Shown piece after piece: positions 34 to 3,977 of a DNA stretch of 3,977 bases (the first letter of the stretch is position 1; each line of letters starts with the position of its first letter). The position numbers and the translations under genes are program-made. Source of the DNA: a virus (Duplodnaviria > Heunggongvirae > Uroviricota > Caudoviricetes). The stretch lies in IMG/VR virus record IMGVR_UViG_2706794671_000011; one strand, written 5' to 3'. The notes under the pieces were generated by a model that was not told the DNA's origin, searched no databases, and saw only the letters and a program-made list of their open reading frames with translations.

Positions 34-1017
34 TCAGATTTTTTGTAAAGAATCTGTCACGCTAAAAGATGTCGAACAAAAATTAACCACAATCATCATC
101 TTTTTTGCATCAACTNNNNNNNNNNNNNNNNNNNNNNNNNNNNNNNNNNNNNNNNNNNNNNNNNNNNNNNNNNNNNNNNNNNNNNNNNNNNNNNNNNNNN
201 NNNNNNNNNNNNNNNNNNNNNNNNNNNNNNNNNNNNNNNNNNNNNNNNNNNNNNNNNNNNNNNNNNNNNNNNNNNNNNNNNNNNNNNNNNNNNNNNNNNN
301 NNNNNNNNNNNNNNNNNNNNNNNNNNNNNNNNNNNNNNNNNNNNNNNNNNNNNNNNNNNNNNNNNNNNNNNNNNNNNNGTCATTACCGTCAAGATAAGCC
401 ACCTCAATTGTGTCCGTTCCCTGTGCTGAAAGCATGTACCATTGCTTATCACTGACTTCATCAAGGCGGGGATCGACAATAATATCCAGTTGTTTGTGGT
501 ACGGGTTATATGAACCACTGTTTGTATCGGCACCGAAAGGCGTGGTTGAGTTAACCATTTGCAACGCTCTGTCTTCCAGAGCCGCAGGAACAAGAAGGAA
601 TTTTGGCACAATATTCAGCACCTCACCGTTTTCATCCCTCTGTGTGCGCATTGCACGGCGTGCAATGCCAAGCCCTGTAGTGCTGACTCCGTTATCAATA
701 TCATTTCCGTGTTTTTTGCTGAACAGCGGTATACCGTCAGAAAGCTTTGTGTTTCCTGTCAGCACCAGATGAACCAGATTACCCACCGTTCTGGCGGCTG
801 CTCGCCCCATTGCCTGTGGGATAACTGTTAACTGATTCAGGTCATCGTTAATAATCGCCTGTCGGGTAATGCTGAAAATATTTCCGTAAGTTGCCAGCGC
901 GATTGGTTCGCCACGGTCACTGGTGGTGATGTATTTATATTCCGCGCCTTCCGGCACTTTGTTTAATGTAGAGAAGCCATTCAGGCCAACACGACGTGCC
1001 TCATGGAAGTTTGACAA
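34..1017 (-). CDS. Putative phage major capsid protein; N-terminal ~213 aa visible (379-1017), middle masked by Ns, C-terminus uncertain
   Basis: Long minus-strand ORF directly downstream of the prohead protease gene, the canonical position of the major capsid gene. Codon usage is protein-like. The frame has no ATG or GTG for the first ~70 codons; the first possible start is TTG at 1015-1017 with AAGG 4 nt upstream. Frame continuity across the 263-nt N block (116-378) cannot be verified, so the stop at 34-36 is provisional. Confidence 0.55.
   Translation of the reverse strand: MSNFHEARRVGLNGFSTLNKVPEGAEYKYITTSDRGEPIALATYGNIFSITRQAIINDDLNQLTVIPQAMGRAAARTVGNLVHLVLTGNTKLSDGIPLFSKKHGNDIDNGVSTTGLGIARRAMRTQRDENGEVLNIVPKFLLVPAALEDRALQMVNSTTPFGADTNSGSYNPYHKQLDIIVDPRLDEVSDKQWYMLSAQGTDTIEVAYLDGNDXXXXXXXXXXXXXXXXXXXXXXXXXXXXXXXXXXXXXXXXXXXXXXXXXXXXXXXXXXXXXXXXXXXXXXXXXXXXXXXXXXXXXXXXVDAKKMMIVVNFCSTSFSVTDSLQKI
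116..378. other. N-masked block (263 nt) inside the capsid ORF
   Basis: Run of n characters; no sequence information available. Confidence 1.
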
Positions 1018-2126
1018 TGAACCTTTTTTCGTCCACTGGCGGAACGTTTCGCCGCTGTGTTCACGGATTTTTCAGCACCACCAGCAAGGATATAAGTAAA
1101 ATCGCTGCTGCTGTGGGTGAATGCCGCGTTTACTATCTGCGAGCGTGTGCTGTAGCTGCCTGTGCTTATGCCGCGATGGGTTAATGATGCCTGTGCCATA
1201 TCGAAAAGGCTCATCATGGCGTAAGGGTTGCCGCGTTCTGCCTGTTCATGTCCCAGACGCGCATTAAGCCCCTGACGCATTGCATCGCCGGTTATGTTGC
1301 CGTTATCCGTGTACGCGTAGTAAAGATTTGCGGGGGTGGTTTTGTTTGTCGGTGTCGATTCTTTACCCATAGTGAGTAAAAGGCGTTCGCGTGCATCCTC
1401 AACGCTACAGCCTGAATCAGCAAGACAACTTATAGCCAGGTCGTTATATCTTCCATTGAACGTGCCAAACAATTCACGTATCCCGTTGAGTCGTTCCTGT
1501 TCTCCGCTGCCAGTTTTCTGGCTGATCATGCTTTTAATATTTTCCGGCATATTCGAAAAATCTCCGATTCGTTTTGATTCAATTCTGGCCATTGCTGTAA
1601 TCGCGGGTATAACCTCATCTGCGAAGCCATTAGCCTTACACTCATTGCCATCCATCCAGGTTTCCGCCTCCATCATGGCGGTGATTTCCTGTTTGCTCCT
1701 GCCCGTTCTTCCGGCGTAGGTTTCCGCCATCGTGTCGCCCAGCTTGTCCATCAGGTCAGCAAAGCGGCGAACGTCGCCCGACACTCCGGCAGTAACACCA
1801 CGGGGGGCATGTATCATCATCATCGCGTTTTCAGGCATAACGATGTGATCGCCACACATGGCAATAAACGAGGCCATAGAAGCCGCCATGCCTTCAATGT
1901 GTACAATTTTCTTTGCCGGATGATTTTTCAGGGCGTTATAGATAGCCAGCCCTTCAAAGATGTCGCCACCAGGTGAATGGATGCGAAGATGGATTTCAGG
2001 CACATTACCGCACGCGTTGATCTCGTCAGTAAGTGCCGATGCTTTTACACCGTACCCGCCGATCTCGTCATAAATGCGTACATGTACAACATCAGCCATA
2101 GCCTTAATGGAAAACCATGTTTTCAT
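981..2126 (-). CDS. ClpP/S14-family prohead (head maturation) serine protease with ~190-aa C-terminal scaffold-like or capsid-N-terminal extension
   Basis: 381-aa ORF with ATG at 2124-2126 and a strong SD (AGGAG, 7-nt spacer). The N-terminal half has the ClpP-like core, including HSPGGDIFEGLAIYNAL and GMAASMASFIAMCGDHIVMPENAMMMIHAPRG, which resembles the ClpP active-site serine region (CMGQAASMGAFLL...VMIHQPLGG). The start overlaps the stop of the upstream small ORF as ATGA (2123-2126). Confidence 0.85.
   Translation of the reverse strand: MKTWFSIKAMADVVHVRIYDEIGGYGVKASALTDEINACGNVPEIHLRIHSPGGDIFEGLAIYNALKNHPAKKIVHIEGMAASMASFIAMCGDHIVMPENAMMMIHAPRGVTAGVSGDVRRFADLMDKLGDTMAETYAGRTGRSKQEITAMMEAETWMDGNECKANGFADEVIPAITAMARIESKRIGDFSNMPENIKSMISQKTGSGEQERLNGIRELFGTFNGRYNDLAISCLADSGCSVEDARERLLLTMGKESTPTNKTTPANLYYAYTDNGNITGDAMRQGLNARLGHEQAERGNPYAMMSLFDMAQASLTHRGISTGSYSTRSQIVNAAFTHSSSDFTYILAGGAEKSVNTAAKRSASGRKKVHCQTSMRHVVLA
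1023..1029 (-). other. A_AAA_AAG slippery heptamer in phase with the protease frame; candidate -1 programmed ribosomal frameshift site or indel-prone A6 homopolymer
   Basis: Minus-strand protease codons are CGA AAA AAG GTT (plus 1023-1031), so the heptamer is in X_XXY_YYZ phase. A -1 slip then reads GGT TCA TTG TCA AAC = G S L S N, which is exactly the capsid ORF frame. Confidence 0.35.
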
Positions 2127-2317
2127 AGCCAGGCTCCTAACGTTGCCCTGTACCAGTATTCAACCGCGCTTCTCGCAATCTGCCCTTTCGTGGGTACTGG
2201 CATTCCAGGGTGATGACTTTTAATGAACTGCTGATAGCGTTCGAGCTTCTCCATAGTTCCGGCGTCTATGTGCACTGTTGCACTTTTATCCGGTTTTCTG
2301 CTGTTGTTCTCTGGCAT
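2123..2317 (-). CDS. Small hypothetical protein (64 aa from ATG at 2315-2317; 75 aa if the upstream ATG at 2348-2350 is used), first gene of the head operon
   Basis: Minus-strand ORF. GGAGG (plus 2325-2329 as CCTCC) sits 7 nt upstream of the internal ATG, whereas the first ATG at 2350 has no SD. The stop overlaps the protease start (ATGA), implying translational coupling. No recognisable family by eye. Confidence 0.5.
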   Translation of the reverse strand: MPENNSRKPDKSATVHIDAGTMEKLERYQQFIKSHHPGMPVPTKGQIARSAVEYWYRATLGAWL

Positions 2318-2831: not shown

Positions 2832-3150
2832 GTCGCGCCGTTCTGGCACTGATTACACTGTCTGCGATAACCTGCCAGCCCTGCCGCGTTTCTCCGTTCT
2901 GGCCTGTCCACTGGCTTACCTGCATGTTACCCGCCACGCTCACCAGCTCGCCTTTCTGGTGCTTTGCCAGTGCGTCAGCCTGTCTGCCAAACGCCAGGAC
3001 GGATAACCATATCGTCGCCGTTCCGTCATCTGCCTGGCTGCACGGCAGGGGAACCGCCATACTCGCCATCGTCATTTGCGTACCCTTGCTGGTGGTCTTT
3101 AACTGCGGGTCAGCCACCAGCCGCCCGTAAGCCGCTATCTGTGCTGTCAT
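2832..3150 (-). CDS. Single-stranded DNA-binding protein-like (OB-fold) protein, N-terminal ~106 aa visible; C-terminus lies inside the N-masked block
   Basis: ATG at 3148-3150 with GGAG upstream. The N-terminus MTAQIAAYGRLVADPQ...WLSVLAFGRQADALAKHQKGELVSVAGNMQVSQWTGQNGETRQGWQVIADSV aligns by eye with the SSB OB-fold pattern of E. coli SSB (GNLGQDPEVR...[50 protein letters not shown]). The ORF-track extension to 2467 passes through Ns and is not trusted. Confidence 0.65.
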
Positions 3151-3392
3151 GCTGTCTGCTCTCCGGTTTTAACGTTGATGGTTGTCACCTGTTCCGCTTC
3201 GGCAATCTCCCGTTCTGTCAGCGTGGCAAAGTTTGCCGCCGTCGTGGTCATGAATGCGCTTATCAGTTCGGGATGTGCTTTCGCGTATCCTTCCCCGGCG
3301 TTGCGGTCGATGATTTTTATCGCCACCCTCAGCCAGTGTTCTGTCAAATCAAGGGCGTGAGATTGTGGTTTTTTGGCGTGCTTCGTTGTCAC
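3147..3392 (-). CDS. Hypothetical 81-aa protein, GTG start, translationally coupled to the SSB-like gene
   Basis: GTG at 3390-3392 is preceded by GAGGT with a 7-nt spacer. The stop TGA overlaps the SSB ATG (ATGA at 3147-3150). An in-frame stop lies 13 codons upstream of the GTG, so the start is constrained. No family recognised. Confidence 0.5.
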   Translation of the reverse strand: MTTKHAKKPQSHALDLTEHWLRVAIKIIDRNAGEGYAKAHPELISAFMTTTAANFATLTEREIAEAEQVTTINVKTGEQTA

Positions 3393-3592
3393 AGGCTTTA
3401 CCTCACAGCAATAAAATAAAATTTTTGCATTTTAACCCTTCACCTGTTCACCTTTTGCAATTTTCCCTTTTTATTCATGATGTTAATGGGTTAACAGTTT
3501 CACAAAAACTATTCACCAACTGTTCACCACTGTTCACCCTTAAAGCTCAATAAAGAATCAAAAAGGTGAACAGTGAATAGTTTGGTGAACAG

Positions 3593-3619
3593 TTCATAAA
3601 TAACTGTTCACCCTATAAT
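3593..3619 (+). promoter_or_regulatory. Sigma70-like promoter candidate embedded in the origin (TTCATA -15 bp- TATAAT) with an iteron in the spacer
   Basis: Perfect -10 TATAAT at 3614-3619. Weak -35 TTCATA at 3593-3598 with a short 15-bp spacer. Iteron TGTTCACC (3605-3612) lies between them, so initiator binding would occlude it. It points antisense to the 93-aa ORF. Confidence 0.3.
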
Positions 3620-3643
3620 ATACTGATATAAAAGACATTTATT
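3613..3643. other. AT-rich core flanked by iterons; candidate DNA unwinding element of the origin
   Basis: cctataatatactgatataaaagacatttattg is markedly AT-rich and bracketed by the forward iteron at 3605 and the reverse iterons at 3648/3658. Confidence 0.35.
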
Positions 3644-3695
3644 GCAGGGTGAACAGTGGTGAACAGTTATTCCATAAGTTTAATTTTTTCCATCG

Positions 3696-3977
3696 TCATT
3701 TGTGACCTATTGCACATGATGGCATCCAGTCTTCTGAATCCTCTGTCAGGGTCACATTTGAACGCAAACCGTGCTTCGTTTTCCGTTTCATATACTCCCT
3801 GCCATATTCCGCCATTGCCCCCGGCATATCTTTACCGAAGCGCGTCAGTGTTACAGGTTTACCGAATCCGTGTGCCCTCATATATGCCAGATAGGCGTGA
3901 TAAAGATACCTGCGCGGACTGAACGGAATAATTTCGGCATTACCCACTAACAGACCATCACACATTACCGACGACAT
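3696..3977 (-). CDS. Hypothetical 93-aa protein immediately upstream (in transcription order) of the iteron array; possibly an iteron-binding replication protein or the C-terminal part of a larger one
   Basis: Minus-strand ORF with ATG exactly at the window edge (3975-3977) and stop TGA at 3696-3698, 30 bp from the first iteron. Whether the ORF extends beyond the window cannot be determined. No family recognised. Confidence 0.45.
   Translation of the reverse strand: MSSVMCDGLLVGNAEIIPFSPRRYLYHAYLAYMRAHGFGKPVTLTRFGKDMPGAMAEYGREYMKRKTKHGLRSNVTLTEDSEDWMPSCAIGHK

Follow-up and report, generated by a model that had tools for sequence, protein, structure and literature searches.

A 13-nt deletion and a slippery A_AAA_AAG run in a probable protease–capsid pseudogene of a Shigella sonnei phage-inducible chromosomal island

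Described systems and the island carrying the locus

Gram-negative phage-inducible chromosomal islands (PICIs) of the EcCICFT073 type have a characteristic gene order: int, alpA, small genes, DUF4222, primase and iteron origin, followed by an SSB/PerC region, a capsid-gene module and a terminal 93-aa gene (PMC6092414; PMC10111431). A phage-type capsid gene is usual in these elements (21 of the 29 reference PICIs; PMC10111431), and PICI capsid genes are reported to be unnecessary for PICI transfer (PMC10111431; PMC6092414). Fusions of the NCBIfam NF045540 family ('scaf_prot_MCP1') occur both in E. coli PICIs and in lambdoid/Stx prophages. Our literature search on experimentally characterised protease–capsid fusions returned nothing specific. 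With respect to translation, two kinds of site are the closest to the one described here. At dnaX and in the IS3/IS911-family transposases, A_AAA_AAG stands in zero-frame phase and is accompanied by stimulators. In the attB1 C-AAA-AAA of pDEST17 (PMC1851650) and in the 'savior indels' (PMC5009743), a frameshift mutation has a lysine-codon run downstream at which a -1 slip restores the frame, and the transframe product is proven.

We analysed a stretch of 3,977 nt, hereafter the window, which was 100% identical to an S. sonnei contig over 2181 nt and had one mismatch to Ss046. The window belongs to an S. sonnei chromosomal island of the EcCICFT073 type. Gene maps of this island showed int, AlpA, DUF4222, a D5_N/DUF5906/Pox_D5 primase and SSB within ∼11.6 kb between cspD and clpS (loci L004 and L005), and GGTGAACAGT iterons were located at window positions 3443–3672. 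The island has the unidirectional int–alpA–primase arrangement, the iteron origin 3′ of the primase, the size of 10–20 kb and the site-specific location that mark the type, and its gene order agrees up to the terminal 93-aa gene. This gene shares 75% identity with its counterpart in the CFT073 island. Whether it corresponds to the structurally solved Rpp was checked against PDB sequences, with no match, and the Rpp paper names no gene number in its text. There are two differences. EcCICFT073 has a lambda E-like capsid and a decoration protein, whereas the S. sonnei island has a protease–capsid fusion; and the S. sonnei copy is broken both by IS elements and by a deletion. In Ss046, an IS1 lies between int and alpA, an IS3-family element interrupts the primase, and the right end carries an IS21. 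The split primase suggests that this copy is no longer mobile.

Reading frames around the heptamer

The first half of the locus is an ORF of 381 aa (981..2126, minus strand), and its product is the same as P0121 of S. sonnei Ss046, a 'putative protease/scaffold protein'. A ClpP-like prohead protease domain comes first, then a scaffold-like helical region and ∼25 residues from the start of the capsid domain; 26 out-of-frame codons (NTAAKRSASGRKKVHCQTSMRHVVLA) and a TGA at 983..981 close the ORF. The remaining capsid-coding frame (EHSGETFRQWTKKGSLSNF...; 259..1062, minus strand) remains open, with its 3′ end and stop codon hidden under an N mask (116–378); the stop at 259 was taken from the unmasked S. 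sonnei locus L004. Upstream of the protease gene is a small ORF of 64 aa (2123..2317, minus strand), the stop of which overlaps the protease ATG (ATGA); E. coli islands have conserved this ORF ahead of the fusion gene, and its O157:H7 counterpart is 92% identical.

An earlier sequence-only reading had drawn attention to the slippery heptamer, and its description of the frames was partly borne out. The zero frame of the protease ORF reads GGA CGA AAA AAG GTT, where CGA AAA AAG occupies 1031..1023 and A_AAA_AAG occupies 1029..1023 on the minus strand. A -1 slip at this point leads into the capsid frame and would read ...SGRKK/GSLSNFHE. The capsid frame is open from 1071, as proposed, with a TGA at 1074..1072 just before it. 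The overlap of 37 nt between the two ORFs holds when it is counted from the TTG at 1017 to the protease stop at 983..981. The heptamer had been placed inside this overlap; it is, however, 6 nt upstream of the TTG, in a stretch of 91 nt where both frames are open. The capsid frame had also been said to lack ATG and GTG for ∼70 codons; the first ATG is indeed farther away (810, codon 88), but a GTG is in frame at 957 (codon 39). The motif AAAAAAG is not enriched in the window (3 occurrences versus 1.02 expected; at least 3 in 19 of 200 shuffles). It occurs once in the fusion gene, 33 nt past the deletion, and in the sole phase that restores the frame. This counts against the pseudogene reading given below: we estimate that such a placement and phase has roughly 1–2% chance a priori. 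The estimate is post hoc, since the coincidence is what got the window flagged.

The 13-nt deletion in a single fusion gene

Relatives of the gene are single ORFs. At ∼90% identity, 143 complete E. coli genomes matched 80% or more of the gene, and every match listed bore the single annotation 'ClpP-like prohead protease/major capsid protein fusion protein'. The full-length fusion was recovered as one tblastn piece in 80 phage records. Among the best 150 representatives of the 50%-identity clusters, ∼120 are at least 535 aa long; the homology always reaches the break, and the subject runs at least 32 residues further upstream. Homologues with a separate ATG-initiated capsid gene, which the sequence-only reading had named as evidence against a frameshift-made fusion, were not found, the homologues being fused.

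Alignment to the intact E. coli genes showed a 13-nt gap in the window, while the A6 run was unchanged. The missing sequence is GCTTGCAGGCTGG, absent between T1063 and G1062 (junction 1062..1063, minus strand; its position is ambiguous by 1 nt); the A-run follows 33 nt downstream. When we put GCTTGCAGGCTGG back in silico into the Ss046 gene and tested the protein for identity with P0122, the intact 626-aa allele of S. sonnei, the two were identical. The 13-nt deletion is thus the actual cause of the frame break, and A6 is the ancestral length of the run. None of the 137 E. coli genomes matching the junction region had the deletion, every match being 13 nt longer than the query. The earlier suggestion that an indel had divided one original ORF was thus right in essence; in detail, the lesion is not A6 versus A7 but a 13-nt deletion 33 nt upstream. 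A homopolymer indel was rejected, since the run length does not differ between the window and the intact genes.

The deleted allele (P0121) was found in 2904 index blocks and on >1000 contigs, including the finished Ss046 chromosome, and the intact allele (P0122) on 113 contigs. Because thousands of S. sonnei assemblies, finished Ss046 among them, have the deleted allele, the deletion is a fixed, inherited mutation in this species and not the sequencing error that had been considered. The exact junction pattern had no hit in species-representative genomes and none in JGI metagenomes; these scans showed no spread of the deletion outside S. sonnei, although the collections may be free of S. sonnei. 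Past the break, the capsid frame is fully open with zero amino-acid changes relative to the intact allele. An unbroken frame of this kind fits a recent event, and it bears no positive sign of decay.

The window carries a disrupted (pseudogene) copy of an NF045540 family member. It has the N-terminal ClpP-related head maturation protease and the C-terminal HK97-fold major capsid domain of the family, and the profile match is contiguous across the break, with the capsid-frame fragment aligning to profile positions 385 to 614. Unlike the NF045540 fusions, the gene is split by the 13-nt deletion, and both fragments (442.7 and 314.7 bits, versus 888.9 for the intact protein) are under the family cut-off of 475 bits, so that one uninterrupted ORF above this score is absent. 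The break had been described as a protease/capsid junction, and this description failed: the Pfam Phage_capsid_4 domain starts at residue 330, with ∼25 of its residues preceding the break, and in an AlphaFold model (pLDDT 88.4, 80-sequence alignment) the break falls within the confidently modelled helix 343–360. The disordered linkers of the model (203–206 and 259–275) are away from it. An earlier model from a 13-sequence alignment (pLDDT 40.9) was discarded for this one, and a PDB sequence search gave no solved capsid relative. Among the residues lost or garbled by the break are G358, E364, W369 and T370, present in 78, 75, 72 and 70, respectively, of 80 family members.

We name an ordinary pseudogene as the very probable reading: in an S. 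sonnei PICI, a protease–capsid gene that is otherwise one ORF was disrupted by a 13-nt deletion. The normal gene encodes a ClpP-like prohead protease at the N-terminus, followed by a helical scaffold-like segment, and an HK97-fold major capsid protein at the C-terminus. The 13-nt loss in the major S. sonnei lineage took four codons and one base out of the N-terminal part of the capsid domain. Translation from the protease ATG is thereby shifted to the +1 frame against the capsid and ends 26 codons on at 983..981, while the capsid part stays open but orphaned. The A6G run consists of ancestral Lys-Lys-Gly codons that the deletion chanced to bring into X_XXY_YYZ phase. The gene is likely to be non-functional, a pseudogene in a decaying island.

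The heptamer as by-product or as recoding site

The heptamer owes its slippage phase to the deletion upstream of it. In the intact E. coli genes, the same nucleotides are read as ACG AAA AAA GGT (T-K-K-G), in the wrong phase for slippage, and the helper-phage-type gene has ACC CGT AAG GGA at the same site, with no A-run. The Lys-Lys codons are not conserved: of 80 diverse members of the family, 7 have K371 and 27 have K372. The sequence-only reading had offered a programmed -1 protease–scaffold–capsid fusion as one option, which these homologues do not support, being single ORFs with the A-run out of phase or absent and the lysine codons unconserved. A stimulatory structure was not found either. 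The downstream fold of 102 nt had z = -0.42, with 67 of 200 shuffles folding at least as well. The hairpin that had been proposed as a check was sought in 102 nt and in 30–80 nt past the heptamer, and nothing stood above the shuffles. Local hairpins within 40 nt of the heptamer reached -6.3 kcal/mol at best (the explicit search covered hairpins). On reading the upstream sequence GCGGCGAAACGTTCCGCCAGTGGACG, we saw no GGAGG-like element at the spacing of an SD-like stimulator (10–14 nt).

The window resembles the dnaX and IS3/IS911-family sites: the heptamer is identical and in zero-frame phase, and the -1 frame is coding and runs open to window position 259. Unlike them, it showed no downstream hairpin or pseudoknot in these folds, and it is without an upstream SD-like stimulator and a conserved heptamer and phase; its relatives are without the two-ORF layout; and its phase arose by recent deletion. 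We have little doubt, as part of the explanation given above, that the heptamer is a by-product and not a recoding signal.

Slippage could nevertheless occur adventitiously, at a low level. Compensatory -1 slippage would yield a 622-aa protease–scaffold–capsid fusion with VNTAAKRSASGRKK replacing VLAGWEHSGETFRQWTKK; this would make the locus a leaky 'pseudo-pseudogene' whose function is residual or altered. [quoted passage not shown] However, downstream structure (z = -0.42; -6.3 kcal/mol or weaker within 40 nt) and an upstream SD-like element are both absent. In a systematic E. coli assay, stimulator-less heptamers reached only 2–10 times the 0.055% background (PMC4066793). The product would lose or replace L356, G358, W359, E364, T365, F366, W369 and T370, which are invariant or nearly so and belong to a structured helix. 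The primase is split by an IS and the element is probably immobile, and the motif is older than the deletion and was therefore never selected for. The restored product, proven for pDEST17 and the 'savior indels', is only predicted for the window, and unlike theirs it would carry 13 wrong and 4 missing residues in a conserved segment. We consider this rescue very unlikely. If leaky rescue were true, a bacterial satellite would provide a natural case of compensatory frameshifting, which would be moderately interesting for work on recoding.

Still less probable, in our judgement, is that the fixed allele makes mostly free 381-aa protease–scaffold together with a small -1 fraction of 622-aa fusion having a rewritten capsid N-arm. 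If true, a single deletion would set the ratio of scaffold/protease to capsid by frameshift, and the products could interfere with, or co-assemble into, helper-phage heads.

Separate translation of the capsid domain from the TTG, giving a protease–scaffold and a capsid as two functional proteins, was another option of the sequence-only reading, and we regard it as highly improbable. A 252-aa 'capsid' ORF was called by the gene caller from this TTG (1015..1017, minus strand), a weak AAGG is 4 nt upstream, and protease and capsid are separate in many phages, with many protease-only matches in the phage tblastn search. But a TTG with a 4-nt SD remnant at short spacing is a weak start, and the codon corresponds to Leu375 of the intact fusion, so that the product would be without helix 343–360 and the next conserved block of the capsid domain, a conserved and structured N-terminal part. 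None of the best 150 cluster representatives starts at this position, their homology extending upstream, and the split arrangement was seen only in S. sonnei, derived from the intact fused allele.

An A6 homopolymer miscall or local misassembly is effectively refuted: homopolymers are error-prone on some platforms and the window has masked stretches, but the A-run and its intact counterparts are equally long, non-repetitive sequence surrounds the 13-nt deletion that forms the lesion, and the same 381-aa product recurs across the 2904 index blocks, the >1000 contigs and the finished Ss046 chromosome.

For annotation, the pseudogene reading means that the locus is a frameshifted pseudogene of a protease–capsid fusion gene and neither two genes nor a recoding site. 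It also defines a class of false positives in searches for slippery heptamers: a frameshift mutation just upstream of a Lys-Lys run (AAA AAA G) yields a perfectly phased A_AAA_AAG leading back to the original frame. In S. sonnei, the locus would be one more case of gene decay in Shigella mobile elements, and the decayed gene is a PICI capsid gene, already described in the literature as dispensable for PICI transfer.

Reading frames and the missing 13 nt

Every gene in the window is encoded on the minus strand. The first ORF runs from an ATG at 2126 to 981 (381 aa), and the second frame is open from 1071, past a TGA at 1074..1072, into an N mask. The A_AAA_AAG heptamer (1029..1023) lies in the zero-frame phase of the 381-aa ORF, with the codons GGA CGA AAA AAG GTT, and a -1 slip here leads into the second, capsid frame (GSLSNFHE...), as the sequence-only reading had described. 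The heptamer is not inside the 37-nt ORF overlap where it had been placed, as the TTG at 1017 comes 6 nt after it; the absence of ATG and GTG for ∼70 codons held for ATG (first at 810), not for GTG (in frame at 957, codon 39). AAAAAAG occurs three times in the window (1.0 expected), a count equalled by 19 of 200 shuffles.

The 381-aa ORF matched the ClpP-related head maturation protease model with 202.9 bits (cut-off 120 bits) and also the initial portion of NCBIfam NF045540 ('ClpP-like prohead protease/major capsid protein fusion protein'; 652 positions). The second frame matched positions 385-614 of NF045540 and Pfam Phage_capsid_4. In the intact Escherichia coli protein, Phage_capsid_4 starts at residue 330, ∼25 residues before the window's frames part, so that the site is not the protease/capsid domain junction it had been taken for.

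We aligned the window to two intact E. coli genes and observed that 13 nt, GCTTGCAGGCTGG, are missing from it between T1063 and G1062 of the minus strand; all three have A6 in the A-run. An indel splitting one ORF, among the explanations proposed earlier, was therefore the correct kind of event, but at another site and of another size than the 1 nt of the A-run. In the intact E. coli genes the A-run reads TGG ACG AAA AAA GGT (W-T-K-K-G), out of phase for tandem -1 slippage, and the helper-phage-type paralogue in O157:H7 reads TGG ACC CGT AAG GGA, without an A-run; compared with these, the deleted allele is alone in having X_XXY_YYZ in phase here. With these 13 nt gone, ribosomes read +1 relative to the capsid frame, and a -1 slip at any point within the following 26 codons would for this reason 'restore' it.

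We aligned family members in a close set (13) and a diverse set (80), and L356-K372, the residues that are lost or garbled, proved to be among the best conserved stretches of the family. In the diverse set, G358 is kept in 78/80, E364 in 75, W369 in 72, T370 in 70, T365 in 67 and L356 in 65; the A-run lysines are not conserved (K371 in 7/80, K372 in 27/80).

Intact relatives and origin of the deleted allele

In a megablast search of 5,426 complete E. coli genomes, 143 carried at least 80% of the region at ∼90% identity, and among the matches listed the annotation is always a single fusion protein of 629 aa. A 146-nt junction stretch had matches in 137 E. coli genomes, all in the 80-90% identity band; the subject was 13 nt longer than the query in every one among the matches listed, and the window's arrangement at the junction was found in 0 of the 137. 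The full-length fusion is also a single tblastn piece in 80 GenBank phage records, such as those of an Stx2a-converting phage and Citrobacter phage Chris1. About 120 of the best 150 cluster representatives (50% identity) related to the capsid frame are at least 535 aa long; for each of the 150 the alignment starts at query residue 3-10, the position of the break, and the subject extends at least 32 residues further upstream. Relatives thus have one fused ORF at this locus rather than two.

The 381-aa product is identical to P0121, the 'putative protease/scaffold protein' in Shigella sonnei Ss046. Over 2181 nt the window shows 100% identity to an S. sonnei contig, and it differs from Ss046 by one mismatch. 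P0121 is present in 2904 assembly-index blocks and on more than 1000 contigs, the finished Ss046 chromosome among them; the deletion is therefore inherited, and a sequencing error is ruled out. An intact S. sonnei allele, P0122 (626 aa), is found on 113 contigs. When the 13 nt were put back into the Ss046 gene, the encoded protein was identical to P0122 over all 626 residues, and we therefore concluded that the deletion is recent, within-species and derived, with no further amino-acid change. Scans of species-representative genomes and JGI metagenomes gave no hit for the deletion junction.

A third S. sonnei allele, P0129 (376 aa), is unbroken across the 13-nt site (...LAGWEHSGETFRQWTKKG) and terminates in EVA directly after the A-run. 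This ending may reflect the end of an IS or of a contig; if it is real, the same gene would have been disrupted independently.

Translation across the break

The heptamer is real, but these data make it very probable that it is incidental and that the locus holds a pseudogene, produced by the 13-nt deletion, of a known fusion-gene family within a known satellite type. It is a feature of an already known kind.

The only reading with some novelty, of moderate interest if true, is that leaky compensatory frameshifting yields a functional, altered fusion, predicted to be a 622-aa product with VNTAAKRSASGRKK in place of VLAGWEHSGETFRQWTKK. Slippage on lysine runs without programming can be far higher in some over-expression contexts, reaching 25–60% at C-AAA-AAA in pDEST17 (PMC1851650), and some accidental rescue could occur. 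However, heptamers without stimulators gave only 2–10 times the 0.055% background in a systematic E. coli study (PMC4066793), and we regard a functional fusion made in this way as very improbable.

For programmed -1 frameshifting, the supporting features were absent. The downstream hairpin looked for by folding was not found (z = -0.42 over 102 nt; local folds within 40 nt of the heptamer of -6.3 kcal/mol or weaker), inspection of the sequence revealed no SD-like element at the right distance, and motif, phase and two-frame layout were not conserved among the relatives compared. A capsid started independently at the TTG, predicted at 252 aa with Leu375 as first residue, would be without the conserved structured segment, and no relative begins there.

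The island carrying the probable pseudogene

The gene lies, in Ss046 as in other S. sonnei contigs, in an ∼11.6-kb island between cspD and clpS. Starting from the integrase, the island holds, in order, IS1, AlpA, small genes, DUF4222 and a D5_N/DUF5906 primase interrupted by an IS3-family element (5304-8373 on the island maps L004/L005). Next come the Pox_D5 fragment, with which the window ends on the right, an 81-aa gene, SSB, a 64-aa gene, the broken fusion gene and genes of 66 and 93 aa; Ss046 has an IS21 beyond the last of these. The ORF at the window's right edge (3977..3696, minus) is only the C-terminal Pox_D5 fragment of the primase. With the primase split, IS1 between int and alpA, and the IS21 at the end in Ss046, the S. 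sonnei island looks immobilised, judging from its gene map.

The AT-rich gap between this fragment and the 81-aa ORF (3392..3147, minus) holds about nine copies of the iterons GGTGAACAGT / ACTGTTCACC in both orientations (3443-3672), directly 3' of the primase. [quoted passage not shown] The N mask at 2570-2831 covers the 3' end of SSB together with an intergenic region that contains a terminator-like hairpin; its 262 nt correspond to 320 nt in S. sonnei contig L006, which is otherwise identical, and the mask is therefore not length-preserving. The mask at 116-378 is length-preserving and covers the capsid 3' end and stop (259).

The protease ORF shares an ATGA overlap (2123-2126) with the 64-aa ORF upstream of it, an arrangement suggesting that this small conserved gene and the fusion gene are translationally coupled. 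In the PICI EcCICFT073 a small gene of similar size abuts the capsid gene, although BLASTP found no similarity between the two. EcCICFT073 has a lambda-E-like capsid gene and a decoration gene at this position, whereas the island here has the fusion gene. The terminal 93-aa gene, encoding a basic protein (L004 12127-12408, downstream of window position 1; L008 3374-3655), shares 75% identity with the gene that ends EcCICFT073. This protein is conserved at 75–89% identity across the three islands (S. sonnei, O157:H7 and EcCICFT073), although their capsid modules differ; a PDB sequence search for a match to the Rpp packaging-redirection protein found none.

In an S. sonnei contig (L007, 4100-13161) and an O157:H7 locus (L002, 8380-13879), the island is directly followed by an N-terminally truncated terminase gpA, a portal and a second, phage-type ClpP/capsid fusion (675 and 659 aa, respectively). 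This configuration agrees with the one published as 'helper-embedded PICI'. Other S. sonnei contigs share 523 nt with L007 (99.4% identity), through and past the 93-aa gene, and then diverge to clpS.

Capsid genes are common in PICIs, occurring in 21 of 29 reference PICIs (PMC10111431), and are reported not to be required for PICI transfer (PMC10111431; PMC6092414). The setting in S. sonnei is a dispensable gene in an IS-riddled island, in a genome of a genus known for pseudogene accumulation, and this is the expected setting for a neutral frameshift.
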